From IMG/VR virus record IMGVR_UViG_3300032073_005220, positions 64,001 through 128,000 of that record: a DNA stretch of 64,000 bases; one strand, given 5' to 3'. The number at the start of each line of letters is the position of its first letter. Within the stretch, counting starts at the first letter, position 1. Both the position numbers and the translations under genes were made by a program. This stretch comes from a virus. The notes under the pieces were generated by a model. It saw only the letters and a list, made by a program, of their open reading frames with translations, searched no databases and was not told the origin of the DNA. Positions 7,457-40,784 of the stretch are shown in pieces.

Positions 7457-10400
7457 TGTCTATCAATTATCAATGGCAACAATCTAAAGACAACGGAACA
7501 AGCTATGGAAATATCTCAGCTACTGGATCAACTTTACAAATAAACCATATCAAACCCAACCAACACAATTATCTTTATAGGTGTCGAGTTAACAGAGATG
7601 GCAGCAGTAAGTATAGGTACAGCGATCCTGCCAAACTTACAGTTTTATCAGAGATATCTCTTGGTAAATTACCTAGCAATGTTTCTATTGATGACGGAAA
7701 TCTTTCTTTAAGCCCAACTGTTACTGTTAATAGCAGCGCTACAACATCTTTTCAGTGGCAATATTCTGATGATGAAGCTATCAATTATTACGACTTACCA
7801 TCGGCTACAGGATCTGGACTGTCTTTAACTAGTTTATCTAGTGCAAACAATAACTGGCTATATAGACTGCAGGCTAAAAGTTATTATTACTCAGGCATAG
7901 TTAATACGGTTAAATCAAACAATACTCTAGTTCATATCGAAAATGATTTACCTAAACTACAAATATGGAGACAACCTCAGCACTATTATGGAACAGGACA
8001 ACCCGAATTTGAAGTTTTAGTTGCTAGCACAGGATTAAACAGCAACAATATTCCAAATACTTTTTACGATAATTCTGCAACAGATATTACATACGCATGG
8101 GAATATTCTTTTGATGGTCAAAATTGGAGACCAGCAACATATCAATCTAGTGGACAAAATAAAATATACGCGTCAAACAATATAGCTGGTGTTCAATATC
8201 GAGTGAATGTCTCTAAAAGTGGCCACTCGGTAGAGTCAGCATCTGCTTCAATCATACAAGAATTCTGCTTTCCTCCATACTCAAATAATTTTGATGATGA
8301 ATCTAAAATATATAGCATGAATCATTTTGACATCAGAAGCTCTAACGGAAAGACAACTTTAGGACTATTTAGTAATTGTCCTCAAATTCTAGAAACTGCA
8401 GAACGCAGAGCCAATATTAAGATGTTGAGCCTAGAATCTGAAGGAAATAAGTATGATCTAGTTTTTAATATGATTAGAAGTACAGATAGTCTCACAGTAA
8501 AGCCTTACAACTTAGCAATAGAGGATATATCTCTATTTAAAAACAACACAATAATTAAGAAGGCTAGTGTGAATCCAGATTCAATAGAGGATGTAAAAAC
8601 ACCATTCGATCTAAATTATTCATCATATAATAGCACTATAACAATATCACGCCCTGATATTTCTGCTGGTGCTGCTGGCAGGCCATACGGAGACGGGTAT
8701 TGCATAAATCTTGCTAATCCCTTGCACGGTGATAACTTAAATAATATAAATTATAAAAACTTTATTAGCAATTGTATAGCTAAGTCTAGTAGTATACGAT
8801 ATGGGGCTATTAAGGTAGGAGTTACAACTACAGGCAACTCCTCCGTAGATACTGATTTAATATCTAAACTTCCAACTGAATTAAAAATTAAAAATGGAAA
8901 TGACACAATTGTTAACTTAAGGATTAGTTATGAAATAATAGGTAGCGCAAGCGCTATATCAAAAGATACATTAGCAAATATAAATGTAGTAATATTAAAT
9001 CAAGGATACAATTGGTCTTCTAGAAGCTTTACTCAATCAGAACAGGAAGCTTTAAAATATCATGTAAATGACGGAGGAGGATTAATTACATCCGAATGGG
9101 TCTTATGGAATAGTGCTTACGGAAGATTTGACTACCTGAAAGAAGTGTTTGCTGCAGAACCTAGTCGTGACTACCAACTTGAAAATCAAGTGAGATATTA
9201 TAAATATAATTCTAATTTAATTATAAATAACGAGGTTTCAGACGATTTTAAATTCGCCCCTACCAACGTTGCTGGAGGAACAGAAACTACATTTACTAGT
9301 TTCAAAACAGGATCTCAATTATTCTATATCAAAGAACCAAAACCGATTTCTATTATTAATTTAAAACAAGCAAAATTCAATTTGCTAGATTTATTCTATT
9401 TCACAGCACAAGAGGCAGAAAATACAACCAACTCAACTCTTGATGGACTTAATAAGTTTTTTACAGGATCTTTTCATTGGGAAGGCAAAGTATCAAAAAA
9501 TATAAAAATTGGAGGAGCTTTATATTGGATATATAAATCTTTGATTGAATACCACAGAAAAGCTGACGAGGGAGTAGATAAACCCAATTCTGCTTGGTCC
9601 TTAGGCAGAGGTCTTATAGGAGATAAAACCGATGGTATAAATCACATACTTAGCGAGAATGGGTTAAATATATCTGATTTTACATTCAGTAATCTGGAAA
9701 CAATTAAGGAGTCTCCCGAAGAAGAATTAACAGCCAACGACAATTTTTGGAAAGATATGTCTAAATTGTTAAGTTCTTTAAAGCCGTCTAATAGTAATTA
9801 CAGGCATAACAGAGAAGTAGTAACAAACAAATGTAATATAGTACAACAACCAAATTTTAAGTACAAGCCCAACCCTTTGCCGTCAGGAAACATACTAATA
9901 GATTGTTTCGTAACAAATCCTTCAGAACTTCCTATTTCGTATTGTCTGCAAAAAAACAGTGGAAACAATTTTGTTGATATACAACAAGATAGTTTTGTAA
10001 ATAATAGAATAATATTTTCGGGGCTTCAGTCATCTGATCTTGATACTGGAATAAATCATAGGATATTATTCAAAACTTCATATGAATATCCTGAAGGAAC
10101 AGGAACACCTTCAGATTCTTTCCAATTTGTTAGCAGGAAAACAGGTAGACCCAGAAAAGATATTACCGAAGGACTTCAAGACTATTCTCAGAGCACGATA
10201 ACCGATGGTAATGGAGTTTTTGTAAAATTCATCGAATCTAGTGGAGCTAACATACATGATGGTATTTCTTCATCTTCTTTTGGAAATTCAGGAAATATTA
10301 TTAGTTGGCAATATTCTTATGATAATGTTAATTTTTACAATACAACATCTGGCGTTAATGTATCAGGAAGCAGTAGTATTCTAACTTTAGGAAGTGGCAA

Positions 10401-33134: not shown

Positions 33135-34178
33135 ATGATTATAACTTATTTTCGTTCTTCCAGCTATAACACGCACAACATGTGCCCTCAGCAATATTAT
33201 TTTGAATATGTTCTTGGGTGGAGAGGTAGTTCTGGACTAAAAGCTGACAAAGGTACTATTGTACACAAAGTATTGGAAATACTAGCTGTTATAAAACAAG
33301 GTTTACAAAACGATAAAAAAGAAATTATAGACGATATACTAGGGAATATTAGTACTACAGGATATGATTTAGAAGAAATTATTAAACAAGTGTATGATTA
33401 TTATTCTTCTCATAATAGTCACCATAACTGGAAACCCAGAGATAGTAAAGACTGTAGAGAATGGGTCTATAAAGCTTTGGAATTTAACGAGGGAATGTTT
33501 GATCCTAGAAATAGAGACATCTTAGAACCAGAGCAGCATTTTGATTTTGAAATAGATAAGACATGGGCAGACTATGATTATGACACTTCAGAAGGTAAAT
33601 TATCTGGTAAACTGGCACTAAAAGGAACAATAGATTTAATTACTTTAGTCAATAAAGACACCATAGAAATAATTGATTGGAAAACAGGAAAAAGGCGAGA
33701 TTGGGCTACGGGAAAAGAAAAGACTCAAGAAAAACTGGAGGTAGATCCTCAATTAAGGATATATTACTATGCTATTAAAAATTTATATCCCAATATTAGA
33801 TATGTCATTTTCTCTATATATTTTATAAATGACGGAGGTCCTTTTTCTGTATGTTTTGACGATTCTGATATGGAAGCAACAGAACACTTATTAAGACAAA
33901 AATTTGAACATATCAAACACACAAGAAAACCATTCTTGAAAAAAAGCTGGATGTGTAATAAGCTGTGCCATTTTGGAAAAACAACTTTTGAAGATACTCA
34001 TATAGAACCTATGGAAGAATACAGAGATAATCAAAGAACAACACCGGGTTATGTGATGACTAAATGCGAACAAGTTAAACACGATTTAGACTTGTATGGT
34101 ATCGACGCTGTCACTAATATATATAAACACCCTAATCACAAATTTGGAAAGTATCAAGCTCCCGGATCAACAGAATGA
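33135..34178 (+). CDS. PD-(D/E)XK exonuclease (RecB/Cas4-like, probable Fe-S cluster)
   Basis: SSY...CPQQY, GTIVHKVLE, KGTIDL, IIDWKTG, QLRIY, distal CNKLC...C. Confidence 0.85.
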   Translation: MIITYFRSSSYNTHNMCPQQYYFEYVLGWRGSSGLKADKGTIVHKVLEILAVIKQGLQNDKKEIIDDILGNISTTGYDLEEIIKQVYDYYSSHNSHHNWKPRDSKDCREWVYKALEFNEGMFDPRNRDILEPEQHFDFEIDKTWADYDYDTSEGKLSGKLALKGTIDLITLVNKDTIEIIDWKTGKRRDWATGKEKTQEKLEVDPQLRIYYYAIKNLYPNIRYVIFSIYFINDGGPFSVCFDDSDMEATEHLLRQKFEHIKHTRKPFLKKSWMCNKLCHFGKTTFEDTHIEPMEEYRDNQRTTPGYVMTKCEQVKHDLDLYGIDAVTNIYKHPNHKFGKYQAPGSTE

Positions 34179-36055
34179 ATCAGTATATACCCTTGCATGT
34201 GCATTCGCACTATTCTTTATTGGACGGATTATCTAAGCCTGCGCAGATAGCTGATAGGTGTTTAGAAATAGGCGTCAAATCTTGCGCTATCACAGATCAT
34301 GGTACAATATCTGGTTGTGTGCAGTTTTATGAAACCATGAAGAAAAAAAATATTAAGCCAATACTAGGTTGTGAAATCTATGTTTGTTCTCAAGATTCCG
34401 AAATTAAAAAACCAGAAAATGCTAAATTAAGTCATTTCCTACTTTTGGCTAAAAACAAGGCAGGCTGGGATTCTCTTATAAAACTAGTTTCTTACAGCAA
34501 TATGGAATCTAGATACTACCATAAACCCAGAGTTTCCCTGAATGATCTGCAACAATTTATAGATGGTAACACTATAGGTTTTTGTGGACATCTTGGTTCT
34601 ACCTTGGCTAATCTTATACAAAACAACAAAGATAATTCTGCAATTACAGAAGGTTGTGAATTTGTGTCTAGGATGCAAAGCATGTTTGGTAGAGATAATT
34701 TCTTTTTAGAAGCTCAACTTATGGACAGGGAAAACAATCCAGAGCAACAAGAGATGACAGATATAGTTAGAAATATATCTAATAAAACTAAATGTAAAAT
34801 CATCTGCACTCCAGATGCTCATTATTGCAGGCAAGAGGATTCTATAGACCAGAGAATACTATTGTGCAACAATTTAAAAACTACACTAATAGATGTAAAC
34901 AAAAAGTGTTTAAATAATGAAAAAGTTCCTATGGGTGTGTTTTTCACTTCGGATAATTATCACATTCTCTCTCAAGAAGAAATTTCTAACCTACATACAG
35001 AAGAAGAAATTGAAAACACGAATTTAATTGACAGTATGTGCGAAGAATATGATATTCTAAGCGCTCCTGTATTACCTCCGTATGATTGTCCAAACAATGC
35101 TGATCCAGCTGAATATTTAAGAGAATTATGCAGACAAGGGTGGAAGCAGAAAATAGCTAATGATGTGGACAAAGAAAAACATCAAATTTATGTAGACAGA
35201 ATAAAAAGAGAGCTAGACGTATTGCAAGGCGCTAATTTGTCTAGCTACTTCCTAACCGTTGTGGATATAGTGAATTATGTTAAAAGTCAAGGATGGCTAC
35301 CCGGTCCCGGACGAGGTTCAGCGGCCGGGTGTTTGGTTTCATATCTTATAGGTATTACCTCTATAGATCCTATTAAGTACAATCTTATTTTTGAAAGATT
35401 TTACAACTCTGGCAGAAATACTGAAGATAGGGTGTCTATGCCAGATATTGATGTTGATGTTCCTATTAATAAAAGAGAAGATGTTATATCTTATATAAAG
35501 AATAAGTATGGAGAAGATAAAGTTTCTCAAATGATTACATATAACACTATGAAAGGTAGAGGTGCTTTAAAAGAAGTATTAAGAGTCTATGGAAATATTA
35601 ATTTTGAAGAAATGAATAATATCACCAAGAACATACCTGATGAGGCTAAAATCGCAGATGAACTACAAGAAATGAAAGAGAATACAGGAGAATCGTCTAT
35701 TATTAGATGGGCATTAGAAAATAATGTTGACAGACTAAAGGAATGGTGCTATATTAATGATAGTGGAGAATTGGCTGGGCCACTCTCTAAAAGATTTGAA
35801 CAGGCCATTCGTTTGGAAGGCACGAAGTCTAATCAATCTAAACATGCTGCTGGTGTAGTTATTAGTAGCACTCCTTTAAGGGATATTTGTCCGATGGTTT
35901 TAGATACCAAAAATAAACAACAGATAGCCGGAATGGAGATGCAAGATTTAGAGGCCCTTGGCATGATTAAATTTGATATTTTAGGTATTGCTATGTTAGA
36001 TAAAATCATGTCTATATCAGCACAACTATCACAAGGAGACACCCATGATAACTAA
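34175..36055 (+). CDS. dnaE: DNA polymerase III alpha, N-terminal half (PHP plus palm/thumb)
   Basis: HVHSHYSLLDG, TDHG, DAHY, GRGSAAGCLV, FERF, PDIDVD, KHAAGVV, KFDILG; ends about 20 aa after KFDILG. Confidence 0.93.
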   Translation: MNQYIPLHVHSHYSLLDGLSKPAQIADRCLEIGVKSCAITDHGTISGCVQFYETMKKKNIKPILGCEIYVCSQDSEIKKPENAKLSHFLLLAKNKAGWDSLIKLVSYSNMESRYYHKPRVSLNDLQQFIDGNTIGFCGHLGSTLANLIQNNKDNSAITEGCEFVSRMQSMFGRDNFFLEAQLMDRENNPEQQEMTDIVRNISNKTKCKIICTPDAHYCRQEDSIDQRILLCNNLKTTLIDVNKKCLNNEKVPMGVFFTSDNYHILSQEEISNLHTEEEIENTNLIDSMCEEYDILSAPVLPPYDCPNNADPAEYLRELCRQGWKQKIANDVDKEKHQIYVDRIKRELDVLQGANLSSYFLTVVDIVNYVKSQGWLPGPGRGSAAGCLVSYLIGITSIDPIKYNLIFERFYNSGRNTEDRVSMPDIDVDVPINKREDVISYIKNKYGEDKVSQMITYNTMKGRGALKEVLRVYGNINFEEMNNITKNIPDEAKIADELQEMKENTGESSIIRWALENNVDRLKEWCYINDSGELAGPLSKRFEQAIRLEGTKSNQSKHAAGVVISSTPLRDICPMVLDTKNKQQIAGMEMQDLEALGMIKFDILGIAMLDKIMSISAQLSQGDTHDN

Positions 36056-36227
36056 AAAATTTGCAGATTTATCGATAAATGCAAAATTTGTACATAATAA
36101 TCTTGAGTATCAAAAGTTACAACCAATCAAAATATCTTGTTGCAAGTCCGTCAACGCTTGTGTAGCATCTCAACCTGCTAATAAAGTATTTATCAACCCC
36201 AACCAGGAAGTTAAAGTAAATGTCTAA
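36045..36227 (+). CDS. Small Cys-containing hypothetical protein
   Basis: 60 aa, GGAG RBS, overlaps both neighbours; SCC...C. Confidence 0.6.
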   Translation: MITKKFADLSINAKFVHNNLEYQKLQPIKISCCKSVNACVASQPANKVFINPNQEVKVNV

Positions 36228-36918
36228 TTTTCATAAAATTTGTGTATTTGATTTAGAAACAGACGGAACAGATCCCAACTCCTGCAGCCCTGTTCAAATT
36301 GCTGCTCTTATGGTAGATCCGTTAAAGTTAGAAATTATACCCGATTCTAAATTTAATATAAATTTAAAACCAGAAAAATTAGAAGATAACCCAGACTATT
36401 CTTATGAAGATAGCGATGTATTGGATTTTCATGCTAAAGTTAAAGGAATAACTAGCGCACAAGTATTAGACGAATGGAAAAACTATCATTCACAGAAGCA
36501 GGGATGGACTTCTTTTGTTAGCTATCTAGACATGTATCATTTAGGTAACAGAAAAAAGAAATCTCAATTCACCGCACCTATTGCTGCTGGTTATAACATA
36601 TTTAGATTTGATTTAAAGATTGTTGATAGGCTTAGTAGAAAATACGGTAATACAAATAAAGAAAAAAATAGCGACTTGTTTTTTCCTAGAGACACACTTG
36701 ACTTAATCAACAATGTTTTTTGTTGGTTTGAAGGAAATGACGAATTAAAAAATTACACCCTAGATCATCTCAGAGATTACTTTGGTATGGCAAAGGAAGG
36801 CGCTCATGACGCATTGAAGGATGTAGAGGACACTGCTGAATTGACTATTAGGTTTCTAAGACTTCATAGAAAACTTTCAGCAAAAATTAAATTTAAGGAT
36901 TCTTTTGTAGCACATTAA
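36220..36918 (+). CDS. dnaQ: DEDDh 3'-5' exonuclease (DnaQ/epsilon-like)
   Basis: ExoI FDLETDG, ExoII YNIFRFD, ExoIII HDALKD. Confidence 0.85.
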   Translation: MSNFHKICVFDLETDGTDPNSCSPVQIAALMVDPLKLEIIPDSKFNINLKPEKLEDNPDYSYEDSDVLDFHAKVKGITSAQVLDEWKNYHSQKQGWTSFVSYLDMYHLGNRKKKSQFTAPIAAGYNIFRFDLKIVDRLSRKYGNTNKEKNSDLFFPRDTLDLINNVFCWFEGNDELKNYTLDHLRDYFGMAKEGAHDALKDVEDTAELTIRFLRLHRKLSAKIKFKDSFVAH

Positions 36919-36924
36919 TATCTT

Positions 36925-38541
36925 ATGAAAAATAAATATTTGACTTTTTCTTGCGGGTGTAAGTTTCCGCTTGGAGATAATAACTCTGTATCTTTTGATA
37001 CAGATGTGACTTCTCTGAATAAGGAATGTTCTAAAACGTGGGACTTAATCTCAGATGGTAATACCAAGGGCTGCTTTCAGTTAGAGTCTAGGCTTGGTCA
37101 GTCTATGTCCAAGAAATTGAAACCTTCTAATATAGAGCAATTGTCTGGACTTATTAGTATTTTAAGACCTGGGTGTTTAGAAGCCTATAGAGAAGGCAAG
37201 AGCGTATCTAATCACTATATAGACAAAAAAAATAATTTAGAAGATATTGATTATTTTCATCCAAGTTTAGAAGATATATTACAGCCTACGTACGGAGAAA
37301 TGATATATCAAGAACAGGCTATGAGAATTACACAGAAAATAGCTGGGTTTGACCTAAAAGAAGCAGATATGCTCAGAAAAGCTATTGGTAAGAAAAAACC
37401 AGAAGAGATGGCCAAAGTAAAGAAAAGATTTATATCTGGGTGTAAACAGCAAAATATTGTTACGATAGAAGAAGCAGAAGAAATATTCGGCTGGATCGAA
37501 AAAAGTCAAAGATACTCATTCAACAAGAGTCACGCCATATCTTATGCAATAAACGCTTATCTTTCTGCATATGCTAAAGCCCATTTCCCCAAAATGTTTT
37601 TTGCCTCATATTTAAAGTTCGCTAAAGATAAAATCGATCCGCAACAAGAGATTAAAGAACTTATCAGAAACGCTAGTGAAATGGACGTTTCTGTTAGCAC
37701 TCCAGATTTAAGAAACCTAAACCGTTTATTCGTTGTTGGATCAGAATATATATATTTTGGACTAACAGACATTAAGGGGGTTGGCAATTCTGTGTTTAAT
37801 AAAATTATACAAATAACAGGTGACACAGATTTTGATATTAATAAAGAATCTTGGTGTTATCTCTTGTTTGGTCTCTTATTAAAAATAAACTCTACTGCCG
37901 TGAAAGCCCTAATTAGTTCAGGAGCTTTAGATTACCTTAAAATAAATAGAACTGAAATGCTCTTTGAATACGATGTGGCATCTTCTTTAACAAAAAAAGA
38001 AGCATCGATTTGTGAGGAAGCTTCTGTAGAAGAAAATAAGCTAAAAAATATTTTAGAAAATCTTTTAGATGCACCTCGTATCAACAAAAACAGAAAAATC
38101 AAAATAAATGATGCGATCAACATGCTTAAAAAACCTCCGTATTCTTTACAAGATAGGATAGAGTGGTTGTCAGACAGCGAAAGTTCATTATTGGGCGCCG
38201 CTATATCTTGCTGTAAGTTAGATTCTTATGATATAAGTATGACTAATACAGACTGCAAGACATTTAAAAAGACACACATTAAAAATAATATTATTATTGC
38301 TGGAGAAATAAGTGGAGTTAATATAGTCAAGACTAAAAAAGGTAAAAATCCTGGTCAAGAAATGGCTTTTGTCACAATAGAAGATAGTACGGGGTTGTTG
38401 GATTCTGTTATCATGTTTCCAGAAGCTTGGACCCAATATAAACACCATATTTTTAATAGTAATGTTCTGGTTTTTGTAGGCAATAAAACGAAACAATCGG
38501 ACGGTTTCATAGTAGAAAAATGTTTTGACGCGCACACTTGA
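36925..38541 (+). CDS. dnaE: DNA polymerase III alpha, C-terminal half (fingers, HhH, OB fold)
   Basis: GCFQLES, LRPG, TYGEMIYQEQ, ADMLRKAIGKKK, YSFNKSHA, GLTDIKGVG, MAFVTIEDSTG. Confidence 0.93.
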   Translation: MKNKYLTFSCGCKFPLGDNNSVSFDTDVTSLNKECSKTWDLISDGNTKGCFQLESRLGQSMSKKLKPSNIEQLSGLISILRPGCLEAYREGKSVSNHYIDKKNNLEDIDYFHPSLEDILQPTYGEMIYQEQAMRITQKIAGFDLKEADMLRKAIGKKKPEEMAKVKKRFISGCKQQNIVTIEEAEEIFGWIEKSQRYSFNKSHAISYAINAYLSAYAKAHFPKMFFASYLKFAKDKIDPQQEIKELIRNASEMDVSVSTPDLRNLNRLFVVGSEYIYFGLTDIKGVGNSVFNKIIQITGDTDFDINKESWCYLLFGLLLKINSTAVKALISSGALDYLKINRTEMLFEYDVASSLTKKEASICEEASVEENKLKNILENLLDAPRINKNRKIKINDAINMLKKPPYSLQDRIEWLSDSESSLLGAAISCCKLDSYDISMTNTDCKTFKKTHIKNNIIIAGEISGVNIVKTKKGKNPGQEMAFVTIEDSTGLLDSVIMFPEAWTQYKHHIFNSNVLVFVGNKTKQSDGFIVEKCFDAHT

Positions 38542-38565
38542 CTTATTCGATAATTAGGCTATAAT
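38538..38565 (+). promoter_or_regulatory. Sigma70-type promoter for ssb
   Basis: TTGACT (38538)-16 nt-TATAAT (38560). Confidence 0.7.
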
Positions 38566-38615
38566 ACACTATTGTTGTGTTACATTTTTAAATTTTTAGG
38601 AGTTAAATTAAAGTT

Positions 38616-39005
38616 ATGAATATTACTATTTTAAGAGGAAACCTTGCTAGAGATCCAGAGTACAGAACCGTTAATACAAATGGCAAGCAGACAGGAGTAG
38701 TCAATTTTACTGTCGCTGTTTCTAGAGAATACACAAAAGCAAATGGAGAAAGAGATAAGATCGCTTCCTTTATTAATTGTGAAGCTTGGGATACTGGAGC
38801 TGAAATTATTAGCAATTCTTTTAAGAAGGGCGACTTGGTTCTTGTAGAAGGATCTCTAAGGAATGATAGCTGGGAGAAGGACGGCGTTAAGCATAGCACT
38901 CTTAAGGTGAGAGTAAATAACTTTTCTAAGATTACTAAACTTAGCAGACAACAGAAGAAAGAAAAGGTCTCTTCTGGGCAGGAAAACGAACCCGTTAGCT
39001 TCTAA
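38616..39005 (+). CDS. ssb: Single-stranded DNA-binding protein
   Basis: MN...LRGNLARDPE, FTVAVSR, FINCEAW, KKGDLVLVEGSLR..SWE.DG; C-terminal EPVSF. Confidence 0.95.
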   Translation: MNITILRGNLARDPEYRTVNTNGKQTGVVNFTVAVSREYTKANGERDKIASFINCEAWDTGAEIISNSFKKGDLVLVEGSLRNDSWEKDGVKHSTLKVRVNNFSKITKLSRQQKKEKVSSGQENEPVSF

Positions 39006-39024
39006 ATAAAGAATGCTTTTAAAA

Positions 39025-39090
39025 ATGGTGTCTGTATTGCTAATCTAAGACTCACTCCTTTAGTTATAGCAATGCAGGCGCCATATTTTT
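39025..39090 (+). terminator. Long RNA hairpin after ssb (terminator or processing site)
   Basis: ATGGTGTCTGTATTGCTA pairs with TAGCAATGCAGGCGCCAT (18 bp, 3 G-U), followed by ATTTTT. Confidence 0.65.
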
Positions 39091-39110
39091 ATATTGAAAG
39101 TAATTAATAT

Positions 39111-40784
39111 ATGACACGAAAACCTAAAATATTAATGGCTACAGAAGCTAGTTTTCTTAGTACTGGCTTTGCCAATTATACTAGAGAACTACTAACAAGA
39201 CTTCACGCTACCAATAAATATGAGATAGCTGAATTTTCTGCATACGGTCATGTGAACGACCCTAAAGACGTTGGCATATCATGGAAATACTACGCCAATG
39301 CTGTTAGACCCAACGATAAAAGACATCAAGAGTATATGTCTAGCGCAGATAATCAATTTGGAAGATGGCGATTCGATCAAGTAGTGCTGGACTTTAAGCC
39401 AGATGCCGTTATAGATATTAGAGACTATTGGATGAGTCATTATGAGCAATTCTCTTCATTTAGAGATTTTTTTCATTGGATATTAATGCCAACCGTTGAC
39501 TCTGCTCCGCAACAGCAAACTTGGTTAGATACTTACGAATCTGCTAATGCAATATTCACATACTCTGATTTCGGAGCAAAAACTCTAAAGGAACAAACAA
39601 ACGACAATATCAATTATATTGACACTGTTTCTCCAGGCATAGACCTAAATACTTTTTTTCCTGAAACGGAAGAAAATAGAAAATTACTAAAACAACAAAT
39701 GGGGATACCTGTAGATGCGATCATAATTGGATCAGTAATGCGTAATCAAAAGAGAAAACTAATACCGGAACTTGTTAAATCTTTTAGGATAACATTAGAC
39801 TATTACAGGGAAAATAATCCAGAAATTGCAGACAAAATGTATCTGTACTTACATACCAGTTTTCCCGATGCTGGTTGGGATTTGCCAGAAATTCTTAAAG
39901 ACGAGCAAGTTCTTAATAAAACAATAATTACATATAATTGCGAGCAATGCAACAATATATCTCCTAGTAATTTTGTAGGACCAAGAGCAATCTGTCCGTT
40001 CTGTCATAGCAAAACTAGAATCATACCTTCTGTGGCTCAAGGTGTGAGCGTAGAAACATTACGTCGCATATATTCTGTCATGGACATATATGTTCAATAT
40101 GCTATATGTGAAGGTTTCGGCATGCCTCAAGTAGAAGCGGCTGCTTGTGGTGTTCCCATCGCTACTGTTAATTATAGCGCTATGGAAGACGTTGTAGAGA
40201 AACTAGAAGCATATCCTATATCTATAGGTTCGTATTTTAAAGAACTAGAGACAAAAGCTATTAGGGTATATCCTGACAACCAAAGTTTAAAAAATATTTT
40301 AATAGAATTTCTAAACAAGACAGAAAAAGAAAAACAAGATATTAGAGCAAGAACAAGAGCATTAACAGAAAAGCATTATAATTGGGAAAACATAGCTAAA
40401 AAATGGCAGAATTATTTAGACACTATTCCGTCTAGTGAAGCAAAATGGCAGGAACCTCCTAATTTTCTTGTTCCTATAGATCCAAATATCTGTAACGAAA
40501 ATCCACAGAATATAAACCATATGGCATTAATGACCAGCATATGTATAAATAATTTAAAAAATATAAAATTGATATCTAGCAAGAGAATATTAAATATTTT
40601 ACAAAATTTAGAATACGGTTATGTGCAGCAGGGACCTAATGTTAGATCCTATGGATTAAAACAAGCTGTAGAAGAACTCAATGTATATATACAAAATATT
40701 AACAACTCAGAAAAAGCCAGAACCTCTAACTATAAATCAGAAGAAGATTATATAAAATACTCTAAAATAAAGGCTTCTACATGA
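39111..40784 (+). CDS. GT-B (GT4-like) glycosyltransferase with a zinc-ribbon insertion
   Basis: STGFANYTRELL, RNQKRK, EGFGMPQVEAAACGVP, YNWENIAKKW; inserted CEQC...CPFC. Confidence 0.85.
   Translation: MTRKPKILMATEASFLSTGFANYTRELLTRLHATNKYEIAEFSAYGHVNDPKDVGISWKYYANAVRPNDKRHQEYMSSADNQFGRWRFDQVVLDFKPDAVIDIRDYWMSHYEQFSSFRDFFHWILMPTVDSAPQQQTWLDTYESANAIFTYSDFGAKTLKEQTNDNINYIDTVSPGIDLNTFFPETEENRKLLKQQMGIPVDAIIIGSVMRNQKRKLIPELVKSFRITLDYYRENNPEIADKMYLYLHTSFPDAGWDLPEILKDEQVLNKTIITYNCEQCNNISPSNFVGPRAICPFCHSKTRIIPSVAQGVSVETLRRIYSVMDIYVQYAICEGFGMPQVEAAACGVPIATVNYSAMEDVVEKLEAYPISIGSYFKELETKAIRVYPDNQSLKNILIEFLNKTEKEKQDIRARTRALTEKHYNWENIAKKWQNYLDTIPSSEAKWQEPPNFLVPIDPNICNENPQNINHMALMTSICINNLKNIKLISSKRILNILQNLEYGYVQQGPNVRSYGLKQAVEELNVYIQNINNSEKARTSNYKSEEDYIKYSKIKAST

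Follow-up and report, generated by a model that had tools for sequence, protein, structure and literature searches.

The stretch of DNA analyzed here, referred to as the window, comprises bases 64001-128000 (64,000 nucleotides) of the 157,014-bp viral IMG/VR record IMGVR_UViG_3300032073_005220, a genome rated as 100% complete by CheckV. It contains a cluster of four open reading frames (ORFs) in which the gene for a DnaE-type polymerase, related to the alpha subunit of bacterial DNA polymerase III (Pol III), is divided into two parts, dnaE-N and dnaE-C, with the genes for a small protein of 60 aa and for an exonuclease located between them. An ORF check of the window recovered all four ORFs, on the same (+) strand and at the positions at which they had been placed by the original prediction, which had been made from the sequence alone. 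The features of the locus are the following:

34175..36055, + strand: dnaE-N, 626 aa, with PHP domain, palm with three catalytic Asp residues, and thumb (Pfam, phrog_405 and alignment to Taq alpha)
36045..36227, + strand: 60-aa accessory protein, a predicted six-strand beta-barrel with an invariant CC pair (family alignment and AF2 model)
36220..36918, + strand: DEDDh 3'-5' exonuclease, 232 aa (Pfam RNase_T, phrog_192)
36925..38541, + strand: dnaE-C, 538 aa, with fingers (GCFQLES, GKKK, YSFNKSH), HhH and an OB-like C-terminal barrel
36925..37002, + strand: leader of dnaE-C, approximately 25 aa, split-specific, with an invariant CGC (nt 36952-36960) and a predicted beta-hairpin

The claim that dnaE is present as two ORFs, the first of which carries the PHP domain and the catalytic Asp motifs and stops about 20 aa after them, was borne out by domain searches. 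Residues 7-181 of DnaE-N correspond to the Pfam family PHP (PF02811, E 7e-38), with the HVHSH motif being present, and residues 313-604 yielded a full-length domain match to DNA_pol3_alpha (PF07733, E 6e-75). The motif PDIDVD (aa 423-428, nt 35441-35458) and the KFD of KFDILG (aa 599-604, KFD at nt 35969-35977) align with the palm of Taq alpha, and the ORF stops 22 aa after KFDILG. The second ORF starts ahead of GCFQLES (aa 49-55), as predicted, and matches DNA_pol3_finger (PF17657, E 2e-45) and HHH_6 (PF14579, E 7e-8). For the OB fold also assigned to it, the Pfam match is weak (E 0.0056, under the Pfam cut-off), and the model of DnaE-C generated with AlphaFold2 (AF2; pLDDT 79) contains a beta-barrel at residues 456-535. 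On phrog_405, a single PHROG polymerase profile, DnaE-N occupies positions 41-610 and DnaE-C positions 625-1064, and as judged from this profile one DnaE is cut cleanly, only a loop being absent between the halves. Compared with solved structures, DnaE-N aligns to residues 7-625 of Taq Pol III alpha, with the break at about Taq 625/636, and DnaE-C aligns to residues 585-899 of E. coli alpha, with the break just ahead of approximately residue 585. By these alignments the break is located at the palm/fingers junction of Pol III alpha. The two proteins thus contain the PHP, palm and fingers/HhH/OB parts of a DnaE-type C-family polymerase, but not as one continuous polypeptide.

The genes are as closely coupled as originally proposed. 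dnaE-N and the 60-aa ORF overlap by 11 nt, the 60-aa ORF and the exonuclease gene by 8 nt (ATGTCTAA), and the exonuclease gene and dnaE-C are spaced by 6 nt, which results in a distance of 870 nt between dnaE-N and dnaE-C. The sequence AAGGAG is found immediately 5' of the ATG of the 60-aa ORF, and promoter- and terminator-like sites inside the gene cluster are not more common than in shuffled sequence. Comparison with close relatives revealed dN/dS values of 0.03-0.09 across all four ORFs, indicating strong purifying selection, with 0.03-0.05 for both dnaE halves (0.04 for dnaE-N) and 0.05-0.09 for the 60-aa ORF.

A first scan of IMG/VR yielded 38 related loci, a second scan with an alignment-based profile added another 80, and other collections contributed more; after removal of duplicates, 89 loci span both sides of the junction. 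A scan of IMG/VR with the single unsplit protein P0128 gave no matches, the loci being found by the alignment-based scan. At 82 of the 89 non-redundant loci dnaE is split at the same site, and in all 82 the exonuclease gene is located between the halves, so that the synteny expected for related phages was found. The gene order in those first-scan loci that are long enough to judge is PD-(D/E)XK nuclease, DnaE-N, small ORF, exonuclease, DnaE-C and single-stranded DNA-binding protein (SSB). Among the split loci, the identity of DnaE-N to that of the window ranges from 94% down to approximately 50%, and the gap between dnaE-N and dnaE-C from 861 to 5247 nt (5.2 kb in locus L125). In divergent lineages the gap also holds extra genes, namely for a family-4-like uracil-DNA glycosylase (L070:9908-10456), a Cpn10/GroES-like protein (L119:9607-9864), a YspA/SLOG protein (L116:9806-10165) and an 820-aa RCC1-repeat protein (L123:10050-12512), along with many unnamed ORFs. 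Because it recurs in 82 non-redundant loci of independent metagenomes, the split arrangement is far beyond chance or artefact. The phage database contains no close cultured relative, the best identity being approximately 34% for the N-half and approximately 31% for the C-half.

The protein encoded directly upstream of dnaE-C had been predicted to be a DEDDh exonuclease, and this assignment was confirmed. It matches Pfam RNase_T (PF00929) with 41.7 bits at a cut-off of 24, as well as phrog_192, annotated as "DNA polymerase exonuclease subunit", and contains the motifs ExoI (FDLETDG), ExoII (YNIFRFD) and ExoIII (HDALKD), the His in the ExoIII motif assigning it to the DEDDh type. Its gene is the sole RNase_T gene of the genome. 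At the C-terminus a (K/R)F(K/R)xxF motif is present (KFKDSF, nt 36889-36906), which is kept in split as well as unsplit lineages and is a candidate for the peptide with which the exonuclease docks to the polymerase or to a clamp. On the basis of this motif and of the linkage of the genes in three different arrangements (see below), the enzyme is likely the proofreader of the split DnaE. At locus L125 the exonuclease (L125:11568-12287) has replaced ExoI and ExoIII catalytic residues and a retained C-terminal motif, which hints at a structural role apart from catalysis. In the window, the exonuclease gene and dnaE-C are in the same frame and separated by a TAA and two codons (36916-36927), so that readthrough would fuse the two proteins; this shared frame is not kept in relatives.

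The 60-aa protein had been described as a Cys protein. It is indeed located between the halves, but the emphasis on Cys was overstated: the window protein has Cys at positions 32, 33 and 39, and in relatives only the CC pair (nt 36138-36143) is invariant, F6, F15 and C32-C33 being the invariant positions of the family alignment. The family comprises 167 clusters at 50% identity, all standalone and approximately 57-67 aa in length, and no fusion to another protein was found among 1.84 billion representatives. Wherever the context was examined, weak members included, dnaE-N directly precedes the gene, and by this gene context the family is confined to split dnaE. A hidden Markov model (HMM) of the family detects a member between the halves in 71 of the 82 split loci. 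The AF2 model (pLDDT 93.8) shows a small all-beta barrel of six strands, for which fold comparison returned generic SH3/Tudor/KOW-like matches only (best Z 5.1, Foldseek E 0.02 at best). Searches of Pfam, PHROG and the phage database gave no match, and the matches in the ESM Atlas are unnamed viral clusters only. Divergent look-alikes are found at L120:10800-11180, L121:7448-7933, L051:9862-10530 and L125:9851-10514, some of them with long acidic C-terminal tails. Those of L120 and L121 have no CC pair and end in a Cys-rich acidic tail, and L125 contains two tandem copies.

Like the alpha-epsilon-theta core of E. coli Pol III, the locus combines a C-family polymerase with a DEDDh proofreader encoded by its own gene and with a small additional protein. 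In that core, however, alpha is one chain, the genes are dispersed and theta is helical, whereas here the polymerase is split and the 60-aa protein is predicted to be an all-beta barrel. A theta (HolE)-like fold was considered for the 60-aa protein and rejected, as the model is all-beta and Pfam contains no HolE match for it.

A joint alignment of split and unsplit proteins across the junction revealed a leader with the pattern aromatic-x-CGC-x-Phe on the split C-halves. It is present in nearly all of them, also where the 60-aa protein is missing, and in none of the unsplit relatives in this alignment. AF2 predicts, with moderate confidence (pLDDT approximately 71-76), a beta-hairpin whose strands are formed by residues 5-7 and 13-16 and whose turn contains the CGC. 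By its likeness to the tails of the split NrdA of phage Aeh1, the leader probably has a role in docking.

The genome surrounding the locus points to the function of the split enzyme. Six-frame Pfam searches of the genome revealed no polymerase of the PolA or PolB families, and the genome contains no second DnaE; the split DnaE is the only polymerase detected in the 157-kb genome. The neighboring genes of the module encode a DnaB-like helicase, a Toprim primase, a dNMP kinase, a nuclease, an SSB, a UvsX-like recombinase and a ribonucleotide reductase, and from this context the split enzyme appears to be the phage replicase. The fingers of Pol III alpha bind the incoming nucleotide in solved structures. 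With the Asp triad in the N-half and the fingers in the C-half, activity should thus need both halves.

Continuous dnaE genes, the occurrence of which the original prediction had regarded as speaking against a genuine split, do exist in sister clades, and they are taken here as showing the origin of the split rather than as refuting it. These full-length DnaE relatives share 42-57% identity with the N-half and come from syntenic genomes. The exonuclease gene is located just upstream of dnaE in a basal unsplit clade (L129:6547-7245, L130:7304-7996), on the far side of ssb and a glycosyltransferase gene in a second clade of unsplit forms (L042-L045 and L049; e.g., L042:9463-10146, L043:12500-13183 and L044:12320-12985), and inside dnaE in every split form. 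Since the exonuclease tree parallels the DnaE groups, these would represent three positions of one vertically inherited partner gene. A tree of the initial set of loci recovers the split forms as monophyletic. Once the divergent split forms are included, the second unsplit clade falls within the split lineages (SH-aLRT 95), which would imply re-fusion. As read from these trees, there was at least one ancient fission, and the halves may have been fused again in one nested clade.

Taken together, we consider it likely that the locus encodes a C-family replicase made of separately translated polypeptides that assemble non-covalently. DnaE-N would contribute the PHP domain, the thumb and a palm whose Asp triad binds metal, and DnaE-C the fingers for nucleotide binding, the HhH module for DNA binding and the OB-like domain, so that the active site would be composite. 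The exonuclease, encoded between the halves in a tight operon, would act as proofreading subunit and probably dock via its (K/R)F(K/R)xxF peptide, and the 60-aa beta-barrel would be an optional accessory subunit present in most lineages. The CGC hairpin on DnaE-C would have arisen together with the split and probably aids the docking of the halves, comparable to the NrdA tails of Aeh1. Historically, the exonuclease gene would have been located beside an unsplit dnaE, as it is in the basal relatives, until one ancient rearrangement put it into the palm/fingers loop. The physical assembly and its stoichiometry, as well as what the hairpin and the 60-aa protein contribute, we infer from sequence. 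The original prediction of a replicase of three to four subunits thus stands as far as the absence of a rejoining element and of any other polymerase and the selection on all ORFs are concerned, with the fourth, 60-aa subunit being optional.

Several observations weigh against this picture or parts of it. Six-frame Pfam searches of the genome detected neither a phage beta clamp nor a clamp loader. The family HMM misses the 60-aa protein in 11 of the 82 split loci, three of which hold a divergent look-alike; being absent from about 8-11 of the split loci, the 60-aa protein is not strictly essential, and judged by this distribution it is an optional subunit, for which "3-4 subunits" is an apt description. 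Likewise, the CGC leader is missing in three split loci (L062, L064 and L084), all of which contain the 60-aa protein, and is therefore not strictly essential either. A zinc clasp formed by the CC pair of the 60-aa protein and the CGC of the leader was considered, but is unsupported, as the leader is also found where the 60-aa protein is absent, and the idea is further weakened by DnaE-N having no split-specific Cys or His. With respect to the history, an approximately unbiased (AU) test does not reject the monophyly of the split forms (p = 0.14), while the free tree nests the unsplit clade among them, which leaves room for a single fission as well as for fission followed by re-fusion.

The explanation most directly competing with non-covalent assembly is that the halves are joined covalently, by unrecognised protein or RNA splicing or by ribosomal bypass, so that the working enzyme would be a single-chain alpha. 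There is precedent for this, since split inteins reconnect the pieces of cyanobacterial DnaE and of three marine "fractured" dnaE loci (PMC2677866), and mobile elements are not foreign to the group either. Inteins of the family PF14890 interrupt dnaE in the unsplit relatives P0126 (L044:6001-10191 and L045), P0129, P0137, P0150 and P0158, one of them with LAGLIDADG; the intein of P0126 is inserted at RPG/C, corresponding to residues 83/84 of the window C-half and thus away from the split site. In another relative of the unsplit type (L050:8001-12475), dnaE is cut at about residue 420 in the palm into two ORFs of 425 and 816 aa that do not share a frame. They are separated by a LAGLIDADG homing-endonuclease ORF (9327-10037), and Rfam gave no intron match; this break represents either an intron that has diverged beyond detection or a second split mediated by an endonuclease. 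As judged from the mapped positions, dnaE of this group is invaded by mobile elements, but away from the split. At the split itself, the absence of intein motifs and the uninterrupted YSFNKSH (aa 197-203 of the C-half), both part of the original prediction, were confirmed: no intein family of Pfam matches either half, PF14890 is absent from all six frames of the whole 157-kb genome, Hint motifs are absent at the break and the cyanobacterial Y/xFNKSH site is intact, so that a split-intein DnaE was rejected. The extra sequence at the break amounts to approximately 22 aa on the N side and approximately 25 aa on the C side, which is too short for split-intein halves. RNA splicing fares no better, as a scan of 33500-39500 against Rfam, intron models included, gave no match even when E values up to 1 were allowed, and no homing-endonuclease domain is contained in the 60-aa or exonuclease ORFs (Pfam, PHROG). 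A conserved programmed frameshift or readthrough was rejected because the relative frames of the four ORFs vary between relatives. With its gap of variable length (0.86-5.2 kb) and unrelated cargo, the break resembles any normal boundary between genes, which speaks against bypass or splicing. All of the DNA between the halves codes for protein and is under purifying selection, and the C-half has retained a conserved ATG and a leader of its own. Covalent joining is thus regarded as highly improbable, and these data point to two independently translated proteins.

It is also conceivable that the split genes are decaying or repurposed, with the host Pol III replicating the genome and one or both halves no longer being a polymerase. 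The missing clamp and clamp loader would fit this, as would the exonuclease of L125 with its replaced catalytic residues. Genes in decay would, however, hardly be expected to show dN/dS values of 0.03-0.05 on both halves and intact catalytic motifs, or to be kept across 82 loci down to approximately 50% identity and next to a complete module of DnaB, primase, SSB, recombinase and ribonucleotide reductase, which makes this a very unlikely explanation. Somewhat more can be said for the exonuclease, with or without the barrel, as an obligatory bridge between halves that do not bind each other directly, although we still consider this unlikely. All 82 split loci have the exonuclease gene in the gap, but none of the unsplit relatives has it inside dnaE, the L125 protein is retained with its C-terminal motif intact despite its replaced catalytic residues, and the order of genes in operons often mirrors the order of assembly. 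Yet inheritance from a single origin explains the perfect association equally well, the C-terminal motif also occurs in unsplit lineages and is hence no split-specific adaptation, and in solved alpha structures (2HNH, 2HPI) the palm contacts the fingers directly over a large interface. A bolder form of this proposal, which we put forward as doubtful, is that the exonuclease, in most lineages together with the barrel, bridges the halves, so that the proofreader would be needed for polymerase assembly, and that the fission was reversible, with one nested clade having re-fused dnaE and expelled the exonuclease gene. If true, this would be a natural replicase dismantled and reassembled around its proofreader.

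Non-covalent assembly of a replicase from two gene products would not be without parallel among phages. The N and C halves of the PhiKZ PolB form a 1:1 complex (PMC13648687), and the gp43 of the Aeromonas phages 25 and 44RR is split into 43A and 43B (PMC2988022, citing Petrov et al. 2010), with the 43A/43B products of phage 25 co-purifying and being active (PMC2988022). These systems share with the locus described here a two-gene replicative polymerase and intein-free assembly, and in phage 25 there is also other DNA between the pieces; they belong, however, to family B and have a built-in exonuclease, whereas here a C-family DnaE is cut between palm and fingers and a separate proofreader gene is always located in the gap. 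The cyanobacterial split-intein DnaE and the marine "fractured" dnaE likewise have dnaE in two pieces, and the fractured loci hold a free-standing gene between them (PMC2677866). In contrast to the window, those pieces carry split-intein halves, the N parts of which are 88-105 aa long in "fractured" genes, involve a homing endonuclease and are spliced (PMC2677866), while here no intein is present, the break site is a different one and replisome genes are located between the halves. For group 2.2 jumbo phages, two standalone proteins have been predicted to form a minimal Pol III alpha core (Iyer et al. 2021, PMC7824862), which is similar in that the C-family catalytic module of a phage would be rebuilt from two proteins. 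That core has no PHP or other domains, is encoded by distant genes and occurs beside a family B polymerase, whereas the architecture here is full-length, the halves are adjacent and the enzyme is the sole polymerase detected. Finally, the split NrdA of Aeh1 is an essential enzyme fragmented at the gene level as well, and NrdA-a and NrdA-b require new tails for activity (Crona et al. 2011, PMC3045599), of which the CGC leader would be a candidate counterpart; it is a ribonucleotide reductase interrupted by the mobE homing endonuclease, whereas here a polymerase is interrupted by replisome genes. A full-text search of the literature found no account of a full-length DnaE that is divided at the palm/fingers loop and has the proofreader gene embedded in it. 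Intein-free split PolB and intein-split DnaE are already known, and what is added here is a full-length DnaE split without inteins.

The arrangement belongs to a widespread, uncultured, aquatic group, represented by at least 82 distinct metagenome loci, Tara Oceans samples included. The three positions of the exonuclease gene in otherwise syntenic genomes provide a rare record of the individual steps of a gene fission and, possibly, of a re-fusion, and the 60-aa barrel is a new, context-specific candidate for a replisome subunit. The palm/fingers loop would provide a natural, evolutionarily validated split site of Pol III alpha, which together with the candidate docking hairpin could be used for assembly studies and for the engineering of split polymerases. 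On the reading favored here, intein-free fission, known so far for phage PolB and ribonucleotide reductase, would extend to a bacterial-type replicase.

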